The notes beneath the pieces were generated by a model. It was not told where the DNA came from. It was given only the letters and a program-made list of their open reading frames with translations, and searched no databases. The translations under genes were made by a program, and so were the position numbers. Of a DNA stretch of 34,714 nucleotides, positions 11,232-23,704 are shown piece by piece. The stretch covers positions 1 to 34,714 of the forward strand of contig JAEOTM010000120.1 of NCBI GenBank assembly GCA_016839815.1, written 5' to 3'. Each line of letters opens with the position of its first letter. Position 1 is the stretch's first letter. Source of the DNA: Candidatus Hodarchaeota archaeon. Its GTDB lineage: Archaea; Asgardarchaeota; Heimdallarchaeia; Hodarchaeales; Hodarchaeaceae.

Positions 11232-12656
11232 TTATCGACCCTTTTTTCTGGGAAAGGTATAGATGATTAATGATACTATGGCAAATACACAACTAATAAG
11301 GGGAGTACTCTTGGAAGTATCTGTTGTAGCCGTCTCAGAAGCTTTCAATCCATGTGCATAATAAATATCCATTTCATCATTCCTGCCATCAGACCAGACA
11401 ACATGGGGAAAATTATTTGGATCAACTCGAATGGTAAAATAATCTCCAGGTCTTGTAAAGGTATTTGATGTGGGAACTCCGTTTGAAATATCAATGGGGG
11501 TATTAAAAATGGGTTCTTCTGATACTGGAAATTCTAGTACTCGATAAAACGGTTTAAAAGATGATCCACCTTCATCATCATAATAAACAACGTGAACATT
11601 CCCCTCAGAATCGATATCCATGTCAGGTTCCCATTGATTCCCTGGAGTAGTAGGATTAACTTGATATCTGGGACTAAATGTAAGTCCATAATCATCTGAA
11701 TATCTTAGGTATACATCCCACAAACCATCCTCGACATATTTTTCCGACCATAGGACATATAATCGGTCGTTTCGATCAAAATGTATAACAGGAATAGATC
11801 CTTTTGTGGGTCTTTGATCTAAAGAAGTTTCAAATGTACCATTCTCACCATCTTGATTGATATCAACTGGAATAGTGAATGTTTGCCCTTGATCAGTGGA
11901 AGAAGTGACATAGATATCTCCCCATATGTTGTCAGTAAACCATAACCAGGCGATAAACACATTATTATTACTATCAGTTGTCACATAAGGAGCTAGATGA
12001 TCTACGGGATTAGTGATGGAATCTGTTATCAAACCAACTTCAGTAAATGTACTTCCACCATCATCAGAACGTGTTAGGCGAACATAGGTAGCACCCGACG
12101 TGATATTGATATCATCATACGCAACATAGAGTTTTCCATCATTACTAACTGTCATGGTTTCTTTATCTGCAAAACCAATTCCATAACTTGCAGTTACCAT
12201 AGTCCATGAATCTCCATAATCCGTACTCTTCGCAACAGTCATTTGTGAAAATCCCTCCCCTAAAGGGGCATTTAACGCATATTCTAGGTATGTATAATAC
12301 AAGGTCTTGGTTTCTTCATACCAAACTAACCAAGGATCCGATTGTCCGGTACCAGGAATAAAATTTGGCATATTGAAAGGTTCTAACCATGTTGCTCCAT
12401 TATCAACTGACTTTGAAAAACTAACACGAACACCCCCACCATTGTGAGTATATGCTTCCTTCCATCCCGCAAAAATTATTCCTTCACCACTAATAGCAAG
12501 TGTGGGTTCAACATGATGAGTATATGGAGAATCTCTGGTTGATAATAATTTATTTTCAGAGAAAGACTGGATTGAGGAGTCTTCAGCAGAGATTAGACCA
12601 ATTTCAACCTGTATAAATTGAACTAGTATTATCAGAAGGAGTAATTCTTTTTTCAT
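11232..12656 (-). CDS. Secreted, C-terminally anchored BNR/Asp-box (sialidase-fold) protein
   Basis: Signal peptide; five Asp-boxes (SVDNGATW, STDYGDSW, SDDGGSTF, STDQGQTF, SDDYGLTF); GDY motif; Thr/Ser linker, TM helix and RKKGR tail. Confidence 0.85.
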   Translation of the reverse strand: MKKELLLLIILVQFIQVEIGLISAEDSSIQSFSENKLLSTRDSPYTHHVEPTLAISGEGIIFAGWKEAYTHNGGGVRVSFSKSVDNGATWLEPFNMPNFIPGTGQSDPWLVWYEETKTLYYTYLEYALNAPLGEGFSQMTVAKSTDYGDSWTMVTASYGIGFADKETMTVSNDGKLYVAYDDINITSGATYVRLTRSDDGGSTFTEVGLITDSITNPVDHLAPYVTTDSNNNVFIAWLWFTDNIWGDIYVTSSTDQGQTFTIPVDINQDGENGTFETSLDQRPTKGSIPVIHFDRNDRLYVLWSEKYVEDGLWDVYLRYSDDYGLTFSPRYQVNPTTPGNQWEPDMDIDSEGNVHVVYYDDEGGSSFKPFYRVLEFPVSEEPIFNTPIDISNGVPTSNTFTRPGDYFTIRVDPNNFPHVVWSDGRNDEMDIYYAHGLKASETATTDTSKSTPLISCVFAIVSLIIYTFPRKKGR

Positions 12657-12946
12657 TCAACTCTCAACTCGTTATATGAAGGATATCCAGCTACTAATTC
12701 CACCGTCTTTTAGGTTTTCTAGATGTGTGCAACTACTAATATTATTTTCAAGAGAAAAAAGGATGAAATTTAATCAGATTTTATGGTTCCCTAGTTCGAA
12801 TTTTGGGTTTTTTTCACACAAAAATTTAAATATCTGTGCAACGCCTGAACAAAATTATCTCGGATACATTCTAGTTGAGTTATGATCTAAATATGGATTT
12901 ATTACTCTTTCCCGAGATCAACTTAGAACATTTTTGGTGTAAAAAT

Positions 12947-14356
12947 ATGAAAACACGTGTAAAAATAACACTTTTACTTGTTGGAATAATGTTTTTTTCA
13001 ACAGTAGCTATTAATGTTAGAGCAGCACCTCAAAAAACGCATGCTCTACCAGCGGAAATAAAAGTAGGAGGAGTTTTCCCTATTACTGCACGACCTGACG
13101 CTGGTCCAGATCGTCGTGATGGATTCCTCATTGCAATCGCTGAAATCAATAACCAATCAGGTCCAGACCGAATTTTACCTGAAGGCGTTACCTTAGTTCC
13201 AAATGTCCAAGACGACTTGAACACTGCCGCAGGAGGAACAGCTGCAGCTGAAACTCTGTTAGCTTGGGAAGCAGACATTGTACTTGGTTCTTCTGGAAGT
13301 AGTGTAAGTGCTGCAATTGCTAGCACATTAACTCCATCGAAAATTGTACAAATCTCCTATGCTTCTTCTTCACCTTCGTTAAGTGACAGAGAACTATATC
13401 CATACTTCATGCGAGTATGTGCTTCTGATGCTGATCAAGGATTGGCTCTTGCTAAATTAGTTATTGCTTTTGGATGGGAGCGTGGTGCAGTTATTCACAC
13501 AAGTGATTCCTATGGAACAGGATTGATTGAGATTTTCAAATCCTCCTTTAATCAAACTGGTAAGGTGTTAACAGATCAATCGTTTGAAGCTGGAGCAACT
13601 GATGTCTCAGCAGCAGTCCAGGCCCTCAAAGATAAAGATCCAGAATTCATTTTGGGTAACTTTATTGATGAAGATGCTAAAACAGTCATGAAGAAAGCTC
13701 ACGATTTAGGCATGTTAGACTTTGTTTGGTTAACAACCGATGGTTGGTCAACACAAGCGACAATTACAGATGCTAAAGTCAAAGAAGCTATGAACTATTC
13801 CATTGGTACAAACCCCGCTCCTGCAGGAGGAACAGGTCTCGCTGATTTCAATGATACTTGGTTTGATCCTAATTGGGCTTATTTAGAAACACCTGGTAAC
13901 AGTCAAAGTACTGGTACTCCCTTTAATTCCTATGCACCCTTTTCTTATGATGCAGTTTATGTTGCAGCTAAAGGATTAGCTGCTGCTGGAACTACAGAAG
14001 GAGATGCCTTAAAAGCAGCCCTTTATGATGTTACTCATGAAGGTGCTACTGGATTCATAGAATTTAACAACCTAGGAGAAGTCATTGGTAGATATGACTA
14101 TGTTCAGCTCAGAGATGCTATATATGTCAAATTTGGAGAATATGCCATACCTGCAGGTGGTGGTGCTGCAACAGCTGTCTTAGATGATACATCTGCCTTC
14201 TACTTGAAAGATGAATCAGAATGGTCAATTTCCAACAATGTCGTAACAAATGTCAAAGAAGGTATTCATGGAAAAGTGGCTTCTGGTTTTGAACTTCTAG
14301 CTGTAGTACTTAGTATCGGTGTTTTAACCATCTTCATAAAGAAGCGAAAAAAATAA
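12947..14356 (+). CDS. ABC transporter substrate-binding protein, LIVBP/ANF-receptor (Venus flytrap) fold, membrane-anchored
   Basis: Signal peptide from ATG 12947; GSSGSSVS, QISYASSSPSLSD..YPYFMR and YDAV motifs; C-terminal SGF-TM-KKRKK; first gene of the liv-type cluster. Confidence 0.88.
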   Translation: MKTRVKITLLLVGIMFFSTVAINVRAAPQKTHALPAEIKVGGVFPITARPDAGPDRRDGFLIAIAEINNQSGPDRILPEGVTLVPNVQDDLNTAAGGTAAAETLLAWEADIVLGSSGSSVSAAIASTLTPSKIVQISYASSSPSLSDRELYPYFMRVCASDADQGLALAKLVIAFGWERGAVIHTSDSYGTGLIEIFKSSFNQTGKVLTDQSFEAGATDVSAAVQALKDKDPEFILGNFIDEDAKTVMKKAHDLGMLDFVWLTTDGWSTQATITDAKVKEAMNYSIGTNPAPAGGTGLADFNDTWFDPNWAYLETPGNSQSTGTPFNSYAPFSYDAVYVAAKGLAAAGTTEGDALKAALYDVTHEGATGFIEFNNLGEVIGRYDYVQLRDAIYVKFGEYAIPAGGGAATAVLDDTSAFYLKDESEWSISNNVVTNVKEGIHGKVASGFELLAVVLSIGVLTIFIKKRKK

Positions 14357-14470: not shown

Positions 14471-15205
14471 ATGGGTCAAACAGTGCTCCGCGGTGAACAA
14501 ATTTATTCTGGGTATGGTAAACTTCAGGTAATTAATGGAATTGATATTTATATTGATGAAGGCGAATTGGTGACCATTATTGGGCCAAATGGTTCAGGAA
14601 AATCAACTCTAATTAGGACTATGATTGGCCTGGTTGAGCTATTTAATGGCCATGTTTATATTCGTGGTAAGGAAGTGAGTGGAATGAAACCACACGAAAT
14701 TATTGAAGCAGGCATCCCACTCGGTTATGTTCCGCAACTAGCTAATGTATTCCCAAGTTTAACGATTGAAGAAAATCTTAAAATGGGCCTATTTGTAAAA
14801 AAGTGGGATGAGTACTATCAACAACGAACAGAGGAAATGTTTAAACTTTTCCCAATTTTGGAGGAAAGAATTAAACAAAAAGCGAGTCTTCTAAGCGGAG
14901 GAGAAAGGCAAATGCTAGCATTAGCACGAGCACTAATGCCCTCCCCAGAAGTATTAATCTTGGACGAACCTACAGCAGCATTAGCTCCAAATTTAGCTGA
15001 AGATATGTTACAATTAGTCGTTTCATTAAAGAAGGAATTAAATATATCCATTTTACTAGTCGAACAGCGTGCTAAACGATCAATGGAGCTTTCTGATCGT
15101 GGATATGTGTTAGTTACTGGGGAAATCGCGGCAGAAGGTCCAGCAAACGAATTACTTGCTGAAGATAGAATAAGGAAATTATACCTTGGAGTTAGAGATC
15201 GTTAA
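14471..15205 (+). CDS. livF: Branched-chain amino acid-type ABC ATPase (LivF-like)
   Basis: GPNGSGKST, YVPQ, LSGGERQMLA, ILDEPTAALAP and LLVEQ. Confidence 0.9.
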   Translation: MGQTVLRGEQIYSGYGKLQVINGIDIYIDEGELVTIIGPNGSGKSTLIRTMIGLVELFNGHVYIRGKEVSGMKPHEIIEAGIPLGYVPQLANVFPSLTIEENLKMGLFVKKWDEYYQQRTEEMFKLFPILEERIKQKASLLSGGERQMLALARALMPSPEVLILDEPTAALAPNLAEDMLQLVVSLKKELNISILLVEQRAKRSMELSDRGYVLVTGEIAAEGPANELLAEDRIRKLYLGVRDR

Positions 15206-15254
15206 GACTAATCAAAGTATAAAGAGAAGTATAAAGAAAAAAAGTGAATAAAAA

Positions 15255-16364
15255 ATGGTAATAGCAGGTTTAATACCCATAGATGTTTTCAGTCACACAG
15301 CCTTAATGATTGTTTATGCATGTACATTGATATTATTAACCATTGGATTAAATATGGTCTATTCTGTTCTTAAATTCTCAAATTTTGCACATGCAGAGTT
15401 TATTACGTTTGGAATGTTTACTTCATGGTGGTTACTCCAAATTCTAACCTTTGCTATCCCATGGGATAGCACTAACTTTTTAATAAATAATTTAATCGTT
15501 CATGCATTATTTGCGTTTGTAATGGTTGGTTCTCTTGGTATTGCTAGTGAAGTATTGGTATTTGGAAGGTTAAAAAAGCTTGCAGCAAGCCCAAGATCTT
15601 TTACTGTCGCATCTATTGGAATAGGTCTTATAGTTAGAAATTTCTTAGCAATGATTTTTGGGAATTTTCCAAAACCAAGAATTGGAGGCACCTCTGTTGG
15701 GGAAGTTCCAGCCATATTTGAATGGATTATTGAACCCTTTCCAACACGACAATACTTCTTCCGAAATCATCCTATATTTAGTAATCAAGCAATTTTCATT
15801 ACTGACTACGAAGTATTAATCATTGTAATGAGTATTTGTACAGTCATTGCCGTAGATTATATGTTTCGCAAGACTAAGCTTGGAATTTCAATGCGTGCTA
15901 CATCTGATTCAGTTGAACTTGCACAAGTATCAGGTATTAATACACGAAAGGTTGTTTTCTATACTTGGTTTTTAGCTGCTGGAATTACGGGTTTCGGTGC
16001 AGCTTTATTACGTGCTAACCAACCAAGATTTAGTACCTTAGACGGTTTTATGATGCTCTTACCAATTTTCGCTGTGGTAATTCTAGGGGGTGTTGGCTCA
16101 TTTCGAGGTGGTATTATTTCAGCTTTTATTATTGCTGGAGCTCGACAGTCAACAGTTATTCTTTTTACTCAATTTCAAAGTCCAGGTGGTCTTGAATACA
16201 TGATTGAAGACTTTTTTTACAATATCCTTGGAATAAAAGGACTAACTATCTCTTTTGCTCCTGGATATGCGGATGGAGTCGGTTTTTTTGTACTTATTCT
16301 TGTCCTCTTGTTCAGACCACAAGGGATAGCAGGAACCATTGATGCAACTAGGGAGAGAGTTTGA
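15255..16364 (+). CDS. livH: Branched-chain amino acid-type ABC permease (LivH-like)
   Basis: NFAHAEF, TKLGISMRATS...AQVSGIN, VILGGVGS and RPQGIAG. Confidence 0.9.
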   Translation: MVIAGLIPIDVFSHTALMIVYACTLILLTIGLNMVYSVLKFSNFAHAEFITFGMFTSWWLLQILTFAIPWDSTNFLINNLIVHALFAFVMVGSLGIASEVLVFGRLKKLAASPRSFTVASIGIGLIVRNFLAMIFGNFPKPRIGGTSVGEVPAIFEWIIEPFPTRQYFFRNHPIFSNQAIFITDYEVLIIVMSICTVIAVDYMFRKTKLGISMRATSDSVELAQVSGINTRKVVFYTWFLAAGITGFGAALLRANQPRFSTLDGFMMLLPIFAVVILGGVGSFRGGIISAFIIAGARQSTVILFTQFQSPGGLEYMIEDFFYNILGIKGLTISFAPGYADGVGFFVLILVLLFRPQGIAGTIDATRERV

Positions 16365-16381
16365 GAAAAAGGTGATCCACT

Positions 16382-17704
16382 ATGTCAAGAATATTTAAAC
16401 GTGAAATGAGCGACAAATTACGAAGTATTCTCGTTGGTGCTACTCTTGCAGTCCCCATAATTTATCTTTTTATTTACGCTTTCCTACTTCAATCGAATAA
16501 ATCGATTTTTCTCATTGGTACTCTTCTAACAATCTTAGTCTTCTTTGTAGGAGCACTGAGCTTGGATCTGGAAGTAGGTTCTGTCGGATTACCTAATTTT
16601 GGGAAAGTGGGCTTTTTTGCGCTAGGTGCATATGTCTCAACTCTTCTCTATAGCGTTTATCAGTGGCCATTCTACCATATTCCAGGTATTGGACCGATTG
16701 CACAATTCCTTTTTTCTAGTTTTGTAGCAATAATTGTTGCTGCGCTAGTTGGTTATTTAGTTTCAATACCAACAGTTAAGCTTCGAGCTGACTACTTTGC
16801 AATCATGACGATTGCTGGTGGAGAAATCATCCGTTTGTTATTACAATATGAACGAAGATGGTTCTGGGCACCAGCTCCTGTAGGGCCTCCCACTCAGGTT
16901 ATCTCAAATCGTGTAAAGGTTGATTTCACAGGCCTTTATCCCTTTGATCAAACTTTAGCCCAATACTTTGGATTTACTTTCTTTGAAGATAATAACTTAG
17001 GTTCAATCTTTATTTGGCAGATAGTCTTAATTATCGTATTCGTTCTAATTGCAGTTATCGTTTACTGGTTTGTTGAGCAAATAAGAACATCTCCTTATGG
17101 AAGAACATTACGTGCTATACGAGAAGACGATATTACAGTTACCTCTGTAGGTAAAGATGTTTCTCGATTCCGCTGGCAAGTAACCACACTTGCTGCGTGT
17201 ATTGGTGGTGTAGCAGGAATAATGTACGCAATGACCTTTGCTGCTTTTGAAGCAGGTGATTTCAGGCCGTTCTTGACTTTTGATCTTTATATTTTCATCA
17301 TAATCGGAGGATTAGGAAATAGTCGTGGGGCATTTGCAGGAACAGCCCTAGTCCAAATGTTTCTCCGAGCAGCTCAAGTTCAAGAAGTAAAAGAAAATAT
17401 TTACCTGTATTTAGGGAGTGACACACCAATTTTCGGTCCACTGTTGGACTTTTTGCAATTAGATGTCTCTATAAACCCTGATAATATGAGATTAGTGATT
17501 TTAGGAGTTATTTTAATTTTATTCTTGTTATTCATGCCTGCGGGGTTAATCCCAGAACCAAAAACAAATAATGAAAAATATCTAAAGTCCTTGACTCCTG
17601 AAGAACGTAGACGTTCAGATGAAGCAGTTACAGCCCGTCAAAGTCTAACTGAAAGAGAAAGAATTGATAATGAAGCTACATCTAAGAAAATGGAGGCCTT
17701 GTAA
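16382..17704 (+). CDS. livM: Branched-chain amino acid-type ABC permease (LivM-like)
   Basis: GLPNFGKVGFFALGAY, KLRADYFAIMT, SPYGRTLRAIRED and IIGGLGN. Confidence 0.9.
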   Translation: MSRIFKREMSDKLRSILVGATLAVPIIYLFIYAFLLQSNKSIFLIGTLLTILVFFVGALSLDLEVGSVGLPNFGKVGFFALGAYVSTLLYSVYQWPFYHIPGIGPIAQFLFSSFVAIIVAALVGYLVSIPTVKLRADYFAIMTIAGGEIIRLLLQYERRWFWAPAPVGPPTQVISNRVKVDFTGLYPFDQTLAQYFGFTFFEDNNLGSIFIWQIVLIIVFVLIAVIVYWFVEQIRTSPYGRTLRAIREDDITVTSVGKDVSRFRWQVTTLAACIGGVAGIMYAMTFAAFEAGDFRPFLTFDLYIFIIIGGLGNSRGAFAGTALVQMFLRAAQVQEVKENIYLYLGSDTPIFGPLLDFLQLDVSINPDNMRLVILGVILILFLLFMPAGLIPEPKTNNEKYLKSLTPEERRRSDEAVTARQSLTERERIDNEATSKKMEAL

Positions 17705-18601
17705 ATGGCAAAAGCACAAAATGATGTAAGTCTAACCGCTAAAAATATACACAAATATTTTGGAGGAGTAAAAGCATTAGAAGGAGCATCAGTAGTTGTT
17801 TCTAAAAACAAATTAATATCTCTCATTGGTCCGAATGGTTCAGGAAAAACGACTCTTTTTAATGTAATATCTTGTTGGCTGGACAAATCTCATCCTGACG
17901 ACTTCATTGCAGATAAAGCTAGTGAGGAAAAAGTTAGAAGAGGGCTTCTAAGAAGTATTAAAAGTAGGTTTATCGGAAAGACAGAAAGTGAGGAGGATAC
18001 CCCGAAAGAGGTAGGTCATGTCAAATTTGAAGATTTACATCTTGATGGACTTAGTGCACATGAAGCTGCTCTAACAGGAATGATGAGAACTTTTCAAACA
18101 ACAAGAAATTGGCCAAAATTAACCGTTCTTGAAAATTTACTCGTTGCACCCCAATATCAAACTGGGGAATCATTCTTAAATATTTTCTTCAAACGTAAGC
18201 AAATAGCAGAAGAAGAACATCAGAATACCCTACGAGCTTTAGAAATATTGGATTTTCTTGAGATTACTCATATCCGGGATCAGATTGGGGAGGAACTTTC
18301 TGGAGGCCAACTAAAACTACTAGCCTTAGGACGTTTATTGATGACTGCACCCCGATTGATCCTATTGGATGAACCAATGGCAGGTGTAAATCCTACTCTA
18401 GGTAATAAAATCATGGACAAAATTCTAGAACTGAAGGTAGACTCTACAATCTTTCTAATTGAACATAATATGGATGTGGTATTCAACTACTCCGATGAGA
18501 TTTTTGTTATGGCTAGAGGAAAAATTATTGCACAAGGAACTCCTACTGAGATTGAAACGAATAAGGAAGTCATTGAAGCATACTTAGGAGCAGATTATTA
18601 A
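17705..18601 (+). CDS. livG: Branched-chain amino acid-type ABC ATPase (LivG-like) with an insertion after Walker A
   Basis: GPNGSGKTT, RTFQ, LSGGQ, LLDEPMAGVNP, IEHNM and VIEAYLG. Confidence 0.9.
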   Translation: MAKAQNDVSLTAKNIHKYFGGVKALEGASVVVSKNKLISLIGPNGSGKTTLFNVISCWLDKSHPDDFIADKASEEKVRRGLLRSIKSRFIGKTESEEDTPKEVGHVKFEDLHLDGLSAHEAALTGMMRTFQTTRNWPKLTVLENLLVAPQYQTGESFLNIFFKRKQIAEEEHQNTLRALEILDFLEITHIRDQIGEELSGGQLKLLALGRLLMTAPRLILLDEPMAGVNPTLGNKIMDKILELKVDSTIFLIEHNMDVVFNYSDEIFVMARGKIIAQGTPTEIETNKEVIEAYLGADY

Positions 18602-18616
18602 AAACAACACCTAAAG

Positions 18617-19876
18617 ATGAAGAATTCTCAAAAGTACGAAATACACCCTAATACTACCTTAGCTTCCGCGTTTCTGGTTCATTTATTTGTGGAAGCTCCT
18701 TATTTCATTTTTCCTGTGCTTATTCTGGTAATTGGTGAAGATCTAAATTTAGGAGACTTCATGTGGATAGGCCTAGGATCAATAGGTACAATTGGTGCAC
18801 TAGCGGCTGGTTTACCGGCCCCACTTTTTGGTTGGCTCTCTGATCGATACCAAAGGGGAGTAATGATGTGTATAAGTTTAGTACTTAGTGCTTCAGGAGC
18901 TTTATTGATTGGTTTATTCGGTTCAAGTTTTTTGGTTATAATTATAGGTTATGGAATAATTGGACTTGGAGTTGGCCTCTACCATCCGCCAGGATTATCA
19001 TGGGTTACGTCTGCATTTAAAGATGAGGAAAAAGGTGAGTATTCGAATTATCTAAATAGAATTTTGGGTATTCATGGTGTAGGTGGGACAATTGGATCAG
19101 CTATAGGCCCAATTTCAGTTTTTTTCCTATTAGATTTCATGGATTGGAGAGTTATTTATTTAATTTGGTCGATTCCTTTATTTATACTAAGTTTGATCTT
19201 TTGGATCTTCGTTGCGAGGTTTGAAACTTCATCCAAACAGAGAGAAATTTTTAATTCCTCCAATAGAACGATTAAATTATACAGTTTACTTAAACTAAAT
19301 CTAAAGGATAATCTTGTTTTAATATTTCTTTTTATGATCATGATGTCGCTCACATGGGGAATGACCAATTTTATACTTGCACCATTTCTTTTTGATATCA
19401 AAGGTTTTGAGATATCATATGCAGCATTATTTATTGGAGTATCACACCTTTTTGGTGCTTCTGGTCAGATATTAGGGGGAATTATTGCCGATAAATATTC
19501 TGAAAAAATTGCTCTTCTATTCGCTTCTGCTCTTCAGAGCATAGTCATACTCGGGATTTATGTTCTTAACCTTCCATTGCAATTATTTTTTCTGTATATG
19601 ATTTTGTTTATTGTGAACGCAATTTTCTGGCCCATAACTAATAGTTTCTTAGCAAAAAATACAATTCAAATTGGCAGTGCGTTTGGTGGGTTTATGCTAA
19701 CAGTGAATGTTGTACGAGCAGTAGGGCCTAGCATAGATGGCTTTCTAATTACCTATTTTCCGAGTGAATATCTTTTGATATTTCTATTAGGAATTTTATT
19801 TTCAACGATAGCCTTTGTAACACTTCTACCCATTGAATCCAAGCAAGCAAAGGTTCATGATCTCGAAGGGCAGTGA
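18617..19876 (+). CDS. MFS transporter
   Basis: About 12 TM helices; GWLSDRYQR and GIIADKYSEK motif A copies; YHPPG. Confidence 0.88.
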   Translation: MKNSQKYEIHPNTTLASAFLVHLFVEAPYFIFPVLILVIGEDLNLGDFMWIGLGSIGTIGALAAGLPAPLFGWLSDRYQRGVMMCISLVLSASGALLIGLFGSSFLVIIIGYGIIGLGVGLYHPPGLSWVTSAFKDEEKGEYSNYLNRILGIHGVGGTIGSAIGPISVFFLLDFMDWRVIYLIWSIPLFILSLIFWIFVARFETSSKQREIFNSSNRTIKLYSLLKLNLKDNLVLIFLFMIMMSLTWGMTNFILAPFLFDIKGFEISYAALFIGVSHLFGASGQILGGIIADKYSEKIALLFASALQSIVILGIYVLNLPLQLFFLYMILFIVNAIFWPITNSFLAKNTIQIGSAFGGFMLTVNVVRAVGPSIDGFLITYFPSEYLLIFLLGILFSTIAFVTLLPIESKQAKVHDLEGQ

Positions 19877-20244
19877 ATAATTGCCTCAATCTCTACATGA
19901 ACATCCCTCAGTAATGGACCAACTTGAACAGTTGATCGTGCAGGAGGATTTTTAGGAAAAAATTCAGCATAAGTAGCATTAAACTTTTCAAACAACCTCA
20001 TATCGGTTAAAAATACAGTAGTTTTTACTACATTCTTTAAAGATGTACCTGCTGCCTCTGCAATCGCAGAGAGATTTTGCATTACTTGACGAGTTTCAGC
20101 TTCAATGTTTTCATTAACTATCTTCTTAGTTTCAGGATTAACGGCAATCTGACCCGCTGTAAATAAGAAGTCTCCTACTTTTATGCCCTGACTATAGTAA
20201 CCTCCGGGAGGAGTCCCCCTTTCCGTTTTTATTACTTCAAGCAT
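19855..20244 (-). CDS. ridA: RidA family reactive enamine/imine deaminase
   Basis: YSQGIKVG, TAGQI, VVKTTVFL, PARSTV (catalytic Arg) and VEIEA. Confidence 0.92.
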   Translation of the reverse strand: MLEVIKTERGTPPGGYYSQGIKVGDFLFTAGQIAVNPETKKIVNENIEAETRQVMQNLSAIAEAAGTSLKNVVKTTVFLTDMRLFEKFNATYAEFFPKNPPARSTVQVGPLLRDVHVEIEAIIHCPSRS

Positions 20245-22414: not shown

Positions 22415-23704
22415 ATGGAAATTGTTCCTGAAATAATGAGGTTAAAACCGTCAGCGACTTTAGCAATTAATGAACTAGTAATTAAAATGCGTAAGAAAGG
22501 ACAGAAAATTTATCATATGGGATTTGGAGAATCACCCTTTCCTGTGCAAGCAAGAGTTAAGAAAGCCTTATGTGCACATGCAGATAAGAAATACTATTCC
22601 CCTACTCAGGGTTTCCTCGCATTGCGAAAGCAAATCTGTTCATTTTATGAAAAAGTCTTCAACCTGAATTTTAAACCTAAGCAGGTTATAGTTGCCCTTG
22701 GTAGTAAATCATTGATTTTCCACGCAATCGCTGCACTTGAAGGTCCTCTTCTTCTCCCCACTCCATCTTGGGTAAGTTATCAGCATCAAGCATATCTAGT
22801 ACATAAGAAAGTTGTTTATATGGAGACTTCACCTAAGTCCTCATATCTTTTAACTCCGTCCTTATTACTGTCTTCTTTGGAAAAAACGCATCTAGATTTA
22901 TCTAAACAAAAATTGTTGTTATTGAATTATCCGGGTAATCCAACAGGACAGTCTTACACAAAGGAACAATTAGAGGCACTAGTACCGATCTTAAGGAAGC
23001 ATAATGTAATAGTCATTTCAGATGAAATCTATTCTTTGATAAGTTATAATGGGCAAAACCATTATTCCATTGCATCACTATATCCTGAGGGTACAATAGT
23101 GACTGGTGGATTCTCAAAAGACCGATCACTAGGGGGTTACAGGTTAGGTGTCCTACTACTTCCTAAACGAAACGATGATGTTAAACGGGCGATTCTATCA
23201 ATTGTGAGCGAGATATGGTCTTCTGCTTCGTCACCTATTCAATTTGCCGCTATTGATGCTTATAATCCTAATGAAGAGATGATGAATTTTATTCAGAGGT
23301 GTACAGATATCCATGGCATTATGACAAACTATGTTTATAGGCGCTTGAAAGATGCAGGAATATCATGTGTTGCACCTAAAGGTGGGTTTTACTTATTCCC
23401 AGATTGGAATGATAAGAAGAAAATACTCAAATCAATGAATCTAACAACCTCAAAAAAACTTGCGAAATATCTTCTTAGAGAATATAATCTCGCTTCCTTA
23501 CCAGGATCCGAATTTGGGATGCCAAGGAAATATTTATCTCTTCGTTTATCAACAGTCGATTATGATGGTGGTCTTGTACTAAAAGAATACACTGAAAATA
23601 CCTCAATAGTGCAAAAAAATCCAATAAAATTCGTGGAACAATACGCTCCGAATCTAGTAACAGCCTGTGACATTTTAGAGAAATTCACATCTTCTTTACA
23701 GTAA
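22415..23704 (+). CDS. PLP-dependent aminotransferase class I/II (aspartate aminotransferase-like)
   Basis: PSATLAIN, GFGESPF, PSWVSY, NYPGNPTG, SDEIY, GGFSK (PLP Lys), GYRLG and GGFY. Confidence 0.92.
   Translation: MEIVPEIMRLKPSATLAINELVIKMRKKGQKIYHMGFGESPFPVQARVKKALCAHADKKYYSPTQGFLALRKQICSFYEKVFNLNFKPKQVIVALGSKSLIFHAIAALEGPLLLPTPSWVSYQHQAYLVHKKVVYMETSPKSSYLLTPSLLLSSLEKTHLDLSKQKLLLLNYPGNPTGQSYTKEQLEALVPILRKHNVIVISDEIYSLISYNGQNHYSIASLYPEGTIVTGGFSKDRSLGGYRLGVLLLPKRNDDVKRAILSIVSEIWSSASSPIQFAAIDAYNPNEEMMNFIQRCTDIHGIMTNYVYRRLKDAGISCVAPKGGFYLFPDWNDKKKILKSMNLTTSKKLAKYLLREYNLASLPGSEFGMPRKYLSLRLSTVDYDGGLVLKEYTENTSIVQKNPIKFVEQYAPNLVTACDILEKFTSSLQ

Follow-up and report, generated by a model that had tools for sequence, protein, structure and literature searches.

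A 34,714-nucleotide stretch (positions 1-34,714) of contig JAEOTM010000120.1 of Candidatus Hodarchaeota archaeon (GenBank assembly GCA_016839815.1), referred to here over its whole length as the window, encodes a membrane-anchored substrate-binding protein (SBP) with a Venus-flytrap domain, directly upstream of the genes for an ATP-binding cassette (ABC) importer. We conclude, with a probability of roughly 0.8, that this protein (the query) is the transporter SBP of a Hodarchaeales importer, and that it belongs to one of two families of Heimdall SBPs that form a clan with the eukaryotic flytraps and are the probable source of the receptor module. Family A denotes the query family (Hodarchaeales), family B a second Heimdall family (Kariarchaeaceae and others), and E the eukaryotic flytraps.

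Likeness to class C receptor flytraps

ANF_receptor is the best-scoring Pfam family for the query (161.9 bits over residues 60-388, cut-off 25.4), and Peripla_BP_6 ranks below it (105.9 bits over residues 37-383, cut-off 31.7). The ranking is reversed for Escherichia coli LivJ, used as a control (179.1 bits for Peripla_BP_6 vs 85.9 for ANF_receptor). On the NCBIfam LivJ-type model PRK15404 the query reaches 63.6 bits against a cut-off of 477, and the name LivJ or LivK is therefore not warranted. A phmmer search of all PDB chains places mGluR4, mGluR8 and mGluR7 at the top (64.6 bits, E 6e-17), with GABA-B2 at 57.5 bits and the best bacterial LIVBP (4n0q) at 54.8 bits. An original prediction, made from the DNA alone, had proposed the comparison of the two Pfam families and had held that mGluR-type motifs fit this protein better than those of LivK or LivJ; both the Pfam ranking and the PDB search bear this out.

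The alignment with mGluR4 pairs GSSGSSVS with GASGSSVS, QISYASSSPSLSD with QISYASTAPDLSD, YPYFMRVCASD with YDFFSRVVPSD, TDGW with SDSW and GRYDY with GRYDI, together with SYG, and the long run common to the two proteins reads GSSGSSVS ... QISYAS..P.LSD...Y..F.RV..SD..Q. The six motifs on which the original prediction was built are all present in the translated gene and in the order given: KVGGVFPI (residues 39-46), QISYASSS...RVCASD (135-161), FGWERGAVIHTSDSYG (175-190), FVWLTTDGWS (259-268), YDAVYVAAKGL (334-344) and VTHEGATGFIEFNNLGEVIGRYDYVQL (362-388). The likeness to mGluRs exceeds chance by far.

An AlphaFold2 model computed from a 50-sequence alignment (mean predicted local distance difference test score, pLDDT, 92.6) consists of alternating beta and alpha elements and, by Foldseek, adopts the two-lobed alpha/beta fold of type I binding proteins. 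Structures of mGlu8, mGlu2/4/5, CaSR and GABA-B, ligand-bound ones included, rank first (E 5e-28 to 1e-25), and the Leu-bound bacterial SBP 4n0q stands at rank 42 (E 1.2e-25, TMt 0.80). The structural check suggested at the outset thus puts class C receptors ahead of 4n0q by a small margin, and the margin of mGluRs over the bacterial SBP is clearer in sequence than in structure.

A regular-expression search found an exact match to the eight-residue amino-acid-binding motif of type I periplasmic binding proteins and class C G protein-coupled receptors (GPCRs) quoted in PMC12965686, comprising S118, S141, R156, D161, Q164, Y189, G190 and D265. Together with the mGluR4 alignment, this search also locates the class C flytrap amino-acid signature at S118, S141, D161, Y189 and D265. 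We take these five residues to correspond to mGluR1 S165, T188, D208, Y236 and D318. Both mGluRs and LIVBPs grip the glycine moiety of the ligand with the Ser/Ser(Thr)/Asp/Tyr/Asp set. The eight-residue motif occurs in 11 of 15 family A proteins, 11 of 17 of family B, 18 of 34 eukaryotic flytraps and 17 of 35 other SBPs, and we rejected it as a means of telling receptor-like from ordinary SBPs. Because it is common to half of the latter, it supports an alpha-amino acid ligand, which we infer for the query, and nothing more. The conserved Arg56 may be the counterpart of mGluR Arg78, and would then hint at an acidic or polar side chain.

Placement of the Heimdall families beside eukaryotic flytraps

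A word-indexed search recovered about 90 members of the query family at 44-87% identity, mostly from Hodarchaeales and Heimdallarchaeota, with a few from Promethearchaeota and Methanoperedens. Below the family, identity falls sharply to 28%, and the first match there is a 7tm_3 protein. Proteins 78-87% identical to the query carry the names Hodarchaeales and Heimdallarchaeota B3_Heim, which confirms the initial suggestion of an Asgard genome. An exhaustive query-seeded search of 1.84 billion representatives returned 8876 matches. By per-domain score, distant Heimdall (Kariarchaeaceae) SBPs come first after the family (120-213 bits); flytraps fused to 7tm_3 or PDEase_I score 119-110 bits and other short SBPs up to 111. 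By this measure, the eukaryotic 7tm_3 and phosphodiesterase (PDE) flytraps are at least level with the best other short SBPs. In pairwise BLAST to the query, the best eukaryote scores 150 bits and the bacterial SBP P0184 120 bits.

The fused flytraps come from Platysulcus, Endostelium, Flabellula, Thecamonas, Euglena, Picozoa, Guillardia, Hanusia, a fern, Chromosphaera, a sponge and a coral. The 7tm_3-bearing matches were considered as possible archaeal proteins and rejected as such, as they derive from EukProt transcriptomes or genomes of named protists. The eukaryotic members span Amoebozoa, Apusomonadida, stramenopiles, cryptophytes, Picozoa, Euglena, fern, ichthyosporean, sponge and coral, and join the flytrap to 7tm_3, Lig_chan (plant GLR), PDEase_I or protein kinase domains; so wide a range of groups suggests that eukaryotes had the module early on. 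Also seen were giant eukaryotic proteins in which 5-10 flytraps stand in tandem, often with seven transmembrane helices after them (P0132, 3927 aa; P0124, 3171 aa; P0145, P0143 and others), and protist and metagenomic sequences abound in GPCR-like proteins with multiple flytraps.

A reciprocal profile was built from ten eukaryotic flytraps. Among proteins of 167-681 residues, its top matches are Heimdall/Kariarchaeaceae SBPs (290-417 bits, 33-41% identity), and ordinary 'branched-chain amino acid' SBPs score about 70 bits. Eukaryotic members score 370-466 bits on it, family B 358-417, family A 230-316 and the query 264; an NCD3G-type class C receptor scores 172, Chloroflexota lipoprotein SBPs about 100 and LivJ/K 76. 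Identity to eukaryotic flytraps reaches 43% in family B (with a Thecamonas PDE flytrap) and is 25-33% for the query. Of 400 Asgard genomes, 26 have matches to the profile; these cluster in four Heimdall families, with scores of up to 418 bits in two of them. Another Heimdall family has none in 31 genomes, and Loki-type genomes give weak matches only. The best score in 301 Chloroflexota genomes is 160 bits, and in 301 genomes of the Methanoperedens phylum it is 164 bits, save for one transferred family A copy. Three copies are present in the genome of the window: the query, a family A paralogue (contig 191) and a more ordinary paralogue (160 bits). Family B is absent from this genome's matches to the profile and is found in other Heimdall families (f5, f6), where its genes too adjoin LivFHMG genes.

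The careful IQ-TREE analysis (95 rows, LG+C20+F+G4 with posterior mean site frequencies, PMSF) unites A, B and E in a clan that excludes every other prokaryotic binding protein in the sample (100/100, branch 0.66), with support of 100/100 for A, 99/98 for B+E, 96/88 for B and 60/82 for the eukaryotes. The clan recurs in the other three trees, namely a FastTree overview of 200 domains, a quick IQ-TREE run of 101 rows and a thorough LG+F+G4 search. The three IQ-TREE searches, under two models, give the order (other prokaryotic SBPs, (A, (B, eukaryotes))), and the FastTree overview places B within the eukaryote lineages. An archaeal SBP clade, of which the third paralogue of the query's own genome is a member, forms the nearest outgroup. 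Approximately unbiased (AU) tests on thoroughly searched constrained trees (LG+F+G4) reject the joining of A to the nearest ordinary archaeal clade (delta lnL 59, p=0.0037; this constrained search was not fully converged when tested, its last improvement falling at iteration 43) and the grouping of A+B with the ordinary archaeal clade to the exclusion of eukaryotes (delta lnL 141, p=1.3e-11). An apparent rejection of A+B monophyly (AU p=0.03, from fast constrained searches) was withdrawn because the thorough constrained search beat the fast free tree. The eukaryotic references were database matches identified by architecture and source names, not curated mGluR, NPR or iGluR sets.

On these scores and trees, no prokaryotic relatives found are closer to the eukaryotic flytrap module than families A and B, and family B, not the query family, is nearest to eukaryotes. 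Nesting of the query among ordinary LivK-like SBPs with eukaryotic flytraps branching elsewhere, the outcome that the original prediction had named as contrary to it, was not observed in the maximum-likelihood phylogeny that it had called for. Its idea of a close prokaryotic relative of receptor ectodomains that still serves a transporter holds for the clan and for the operon, and needs amending in that the nearest relative is family B. A root among ordinary SBPs makes the archaeal families basal, so the direction from archaeon to eukaryote is favoured, and the most likely origin of the eukaryotic receptor module is an archaeal transporter SBP of this membrane-anchored kind.

Family A also occurs outside the Hodarchaeales, in a few Methanoperedens/Methanosarcinales metagenome-assembled genomes (L012, L015, L016) and one non-Heimdall Asgard genome (G397, L049), with 55-69% identity to the query. 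These copies nest inside family A, a position that indicates a recent lateral spread from Hodarchaeales. Some family A flytraps of Hodarchaeales are fused to parallel beta-helix/NosD domains (PF13229, PF05048; P0263-P0266 and P0123, 871-1113 aa), and tandem double flytraps occur as well (P0122, 914 aa; P0127, 881 aa); domain fusions involving the module thus exist already in archaea. Lipoprotein SBPs of Anaerolineae (Chloroflexota; L022, L024, L027, L028) share the QISY...LSDK..YPYF words with the Heimdall families; their place on the tree is among ordinary SBPs and their score on the eukaryotic profile about 100 bits, which means that the motif by itself is not diagnostic.

Importer operon and surface anchor

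The features of the gene and its surroundings are collected in Table 1. The reading frame is open upstream as far as the TTG at 12875, and a gene-caller version (P0002, 487 aa) starts at about 12893; the orthologues P0003 and P0004 have 469 and 467 residues. The ATG at 12947 is the likely start, as close orthologues begin at MKTRVK. At the N-terminus, a helix is predicted over residues 2-19 and a transmembrane-like segment at residue 3, and signal-peptide cleavage would fall at VRA-AP. The envelope of the flytrap domain on the eukaryotic profile is residues 32-400. The stalk that follows has no family match at residues 401-444, and its block pLDDT is mostly 85-96, dipping near residue 445.

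Table 1. Features of the substrate-binding protein gene and of its neighbourhood in the window
Feature	Coordinates	Strand	Details
Substrate-binding protein gene	12947..14356	+	469 aa, ATG start, stop included
Sec-type signal peptide, aa 1-26	12947..13024	+	Basic start, hydrophobic helix, VRA-AP; read from sequence
Venus-flytrap / type I periplasmic-binding-protein domain, aa 32-400	13040..14146	+	Pfam, eukaryotic-flytrap profile, AlphaFold2, Foldseek, motif regular expression
Short beta-rich stalk/linker between flytrap and anchor, aa 401-444	14147..14278	+	AlphaFold2 strands 409-437
Heimdall-CTERM sorting/anchor tag, aa 445-469	14279..14353	+	SGF, hydrophobic helix, then KKRKK; NF045529
ABC ATPase, LivF/UrtE-like	14471..15205	+	ABC_tran 114 bits; LivF 189 and UrtE 207 bits, both below equivalog cut-offs
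Permease, LivH/UrtB-like (BPD_transp_2)	15255..16364	+	Family profile match
Permease, LivM-like (BPD_transp_2)	16382..17704	+	Family profile match
ABC ATPase, LivG-like, with BCA_ABC_TP_C tail and insertion in ABC domain	17705..18601	+	Family profile match
RidA, flanking the aminomutase	19855-20244	-	Listed with the aminomutase cluster
KamA-family radical-SAM aminomutase, 604 aa	20314-22128	-	TIGR00238, 331.7 bits
Aspartate-aminotransferase-like enzyme, flanking the aminomutase	22415-23704	+	Listed with the aminomutase cluster

As the original prediction stated, genes of the livF-H-M-G type follow the binding-protein gene directly; there are four of them, all on its strand (14471-18601). The SBP is thereby linked to BPD_transp_2 permeases and LivG/LivF-type ATPases, as in the HAAT family. 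In the LivG-like ATPase, the 137-position ABC_tran model spans residues 26-226 and NCBIfam models match in two stretches, implying that roughly 60 residues are inserted within the nucleotide-binding domain. Past the importer lie genes for an MFS transporter, RidA, a KamA-family radical-SAM aminomutase and an aspartate-aminotransferase-like enzyme, which make up an amino-acid-metabolism neighbourhood. The aminomutase is nearest to glutamate 2,3-aminomutase, yet falls below the cut-off of that model, and carries an N-terminal extension of about 190 aa; its cluster may constitute a beta-amino-acid pathway supplied by the transporter. On the other side, a 474-aa protein (11232-12656, minus strand) is transcribed divergently from the SBP gene, with weak BNR/Asp-box repeat matches below the Pfam cut-offs and no NCBIfam family. 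No signalling gene adjoins the SBP gene.

The C-terminal 25 residues match NF045529 (Heimdall-CTERM) with 28.9 bits in the genome search (14279-14353; cut-off 24) and 23.5 bits in a whole-protein hmmscan (residues 445-469), under the same cut-off, so the assignment is borderline but rightly placed. The query has SGF where orthologues have PGF; orthologue C-termini read APGFELL...KKRRK or, more generally, PGF, a transmembrane segment and a basic tail. The genome holds 40 Heimdall-CTERM sites at E<=0.01, about 20 of them above the cut-off (for example G000:C149:55090-55161 and C101:1402-1476), and unrelated archaeal SBPs too end in PGF tags. Because the tag recurs in the genome, in orthologues and in unrelated archaeal SBPs, the C-terminal helix is a means of surface anchoring general among archaea and not the beginnings of a receptor transmembrane domain. 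To our knowledge, archaea have no periplasm in which an SBP could be retained. Pfam finds no 7tm_3 match in the query, whose single hydrophobic helix after the flytrap is not the heptahelical domain of class C GPCRs, and only five residues (KKRKK) follow this helix on the cytoplasmic side. The receptor-like topology that had been proposed from the sequence is, then, superficial. No archaeosortase or exosortase of the Exosortase_EpsH family (PF09721) was found in the genome, but at 89.5% completeness this negative does not prove absence; the tag could be either a plain membrane anchor or an anchor processed by a sortase-type enzyme.

We propose that the Sec signal peptide directs export of the SBP and that the Heimdall-CTERM tag keeps it on the cell surface, where the two-lobed flytrap would close on an alpha-amino acid by means of the Ser/Ser(Thr)/Asp/Tyr/Asp set. 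The loaded protein would dock on the LivH/LivM-like permease, and the LivF- and LivG-like ATPases would drive import in the manner of HAAT-type, LivFHMG-like importers. From an archaeal membrane-anchored transporter SBP of this kind the flytrap of eukaryotic receptors would have been derived.

Alternative explanations and comparison with known systems

The query could be an ordinary LivK/BraC-like SBP whose mGluR-like motifs reflect fold conservation or convergence, with eukaryotic flytraps stemming from some other (bacterial) SBP lineage. The fold is indeed common to all type I SBPs, and the eight-residue motif is found in about half of the ordinary ones (17/35); Peripla_BP_6 is also well over its threshold, the bacterial 4n0q is an almost equal fold match, and P0184, at 120 bits, is not far under the 150 bits of the best eukaryote in pairwise BLAST. 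We nevertheless consider this explanation extremely unlikely, in view of the full support for A+B+E (100/100, branch 0.66), the AU rejections of A with ordinary archaeal SBPs (p=0.0037) and of the exclusion of eukaryotes (p=1.3e-11), and the eukaryotic profile, which yields 260-417 bits on Heimdall SBPs but no more than 164 across about 600 genomes from two other phyla and 76 on LivJ/K. Rooting bears on a reversed history, in which a flytrap gene was transferred from eukaryotes to Heimdall archaea and recruited to an ABC transporter, the archaeal proteins being descendants of the receptor module. If the tree is rooted among ordinary SBPs, A falls outside B+E (99/98), and the next outgroup again consists of archaeal SBPs, among them the third paralogue of the genome. 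A and B, moreover, both lie in LivFHMG operons and bear archaeal anchor tags, and two independent recruitments into the same kind of operon are less parsimonious. Transfer from eukaryotes accordingly seems unlikely to us, even with the patchy Asgard spread, the identity of up to 43% between family B and the Thecamonas PDE flytrap, the position of B among eukaryote lineages in the FastTree overview and the weak monophyly of eukaryotes (60/82) in its favour.

A different kind of objection concerns function. A tethered flytrap with a single C-terminal helix might mainly be a sensor or receptor that acts in signalling or chemotaxis through this helix or a partner, rather than a transporter component. 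Eukaryotic flytraps that are anchored without signalling domains exist, such as the glycosylphosphatidylinositol (GPI)-anchored EhVFT (PMC12965686), and some members of the query family are orphans or are fused to beta-helix domains. For the query such a role is very unlikely, given a cytoplasmic tail of just five residues, a helix that belongs to a tag found at about 20-40 sites in the genome, the position of the gene at the head of a complete importer gene set with short intergenic gaps, and the lack of an adjacent signalling gene.

Several points weigh against the preferred reading, that of an importer SBP from families at the source of the receptor module. The spread is patchy, with profile matches in 26/400 Asgard genomes, in 5 of 21 other genomes of the window's genus and in 0/31 of another Heimdall family, and the copies in Methanoperedens/Methanosarcinales and in one Loki-type genome show that the family moves by transfer. 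A+B monophyly is not rejected by the AU test (delta lnL 7.4, p=0.45); A as sister to B+E (99/98) or to B alone would fit. Monophyly of the eukaryotes is supported at 60/82 only. The outgroup and eukaryote samples were drawn from matches to the query or to the protist-type profile, the tree sample was without NPR and iGluR amino-terminal-domain (iGluR-ATD) references, and the sole exhaustive search was seeded from the query. The eight-residue motif also fits 17 of 35 ordinary SBPs, the Foldseek margin is small (E 5e-28 for mGluRs and about 1e-25 for 4n0q), and the failure to detect an Exosortase_EpsH homologue in the 89.5%-complete genome bears on the processing of the tag.

The choice between vertical descent and ancient transfer needs caution, given the patchy archaeal spread and the evident transfers to Methanoperedens and to a Loki-type genome. 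Tentatively, and at somewhat under even odds, the flytrap of class C GPCRs, of plant and animal glutamate-receptor amino-terminal domains, and of receptor phosphodiesterases and kinases may have been inherited vertically from the anchored amino-acid SBP of an ABC importer in a Heimdallarchaeial ancestor, with A and B as the surviving archaeal branches. The flytrap would in that case be a previously uncharacterised signalling module of Asgard derivation, with these SBPs as living models of what preceded receptors.

The homology of LIVBPs and flytraps is textbook knowledge, and an origin of the mGluR, GABA-B, CaSR and taste-receptor flytraps from 'bacterial LIVBP-like periplasmic proteins' has been asserted since the 1990s; we know of no specific donor lineage that has been named. 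The general homology is stated, for instance, in PMC13466386. A full-text literature search for links between Asgard archaea and Venus flytraps, ANF_receptor or GPCRs gave nothing specific except one preprint entry of 29 October 2026 (10.64898/2026.10.28.762692), which places 'a class C GPCR', unelaborated there, among structural clusters found only in Asgard archaea and eukaryotes; a search of the literature on Heimdall-CTERM likewise found nothing specific. The Heimdall SBPs, already membrane-tethered beside the cell's amino-acid importer, turn an old and vague homology into a testable scenario for the origin of an ancient eukaryotic sensory module, and they offer tractable archaeal proteins for asking which features of ligand specificity, closure dynamics and dimerisation predate receptors.

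With E. coli LivJ/LivK and other SBPs of the HAAT family (TC 3.A.1.4), the query has in common the fold, the alpha-amino-acid signature and the LivH/M and LivG/F partners, and its working mechanism is presumably like theirs. It differs from LivJ in sequence (24% identity, 47 bits) and in the reversed Pfam ranking, and from HAAT SBPs in being tethered by a C-terminal archaeal tag rather than free in the periplasm and in belonging to a separate clan on the tree. The tag resembles PGF-CTERM/archaeosortase-type signals in its small-residue/Gly/Phe motif, hydrophobic helix and basic tail at the extreme C-terminus; it departs from them in having SGF in place of the PGF of orthologues, and in the lack of a detected Exosortase_EpsH-family enzyme in the genome at its 89.5% completeness. 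Family B SBPs (for example P0270, L019 and L036-L042) have the same signal peptide, flytrap, PGF-type tag and LivFHMG neighbourhood and are 37-38% identical to the query, yet score 358-417 bits on the eukaryotic profile as compared with its 264.

The flytraps of class C GPCRs (mGluR4/8, GABA-B, CaSR; PF01094) are the best matches among solved structures by both sequence and fold, share long collinear motifs with the query and fall in the same clan; unlike them, the query has no 7tm_3, cysteine-rich NCD3G or signalling domain and is encoded in a transporter operon. EhVFT of Entamoeba histolytica (PMC12965686) is, like the query, a flytrap that only an anchor keeps on the membrane, without a transmembrane signalling domain. 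It is eukaryotic, GPI-anchored and without a transporter link; as an anchored flytrap, it shows that such an intermediate architecture can function.

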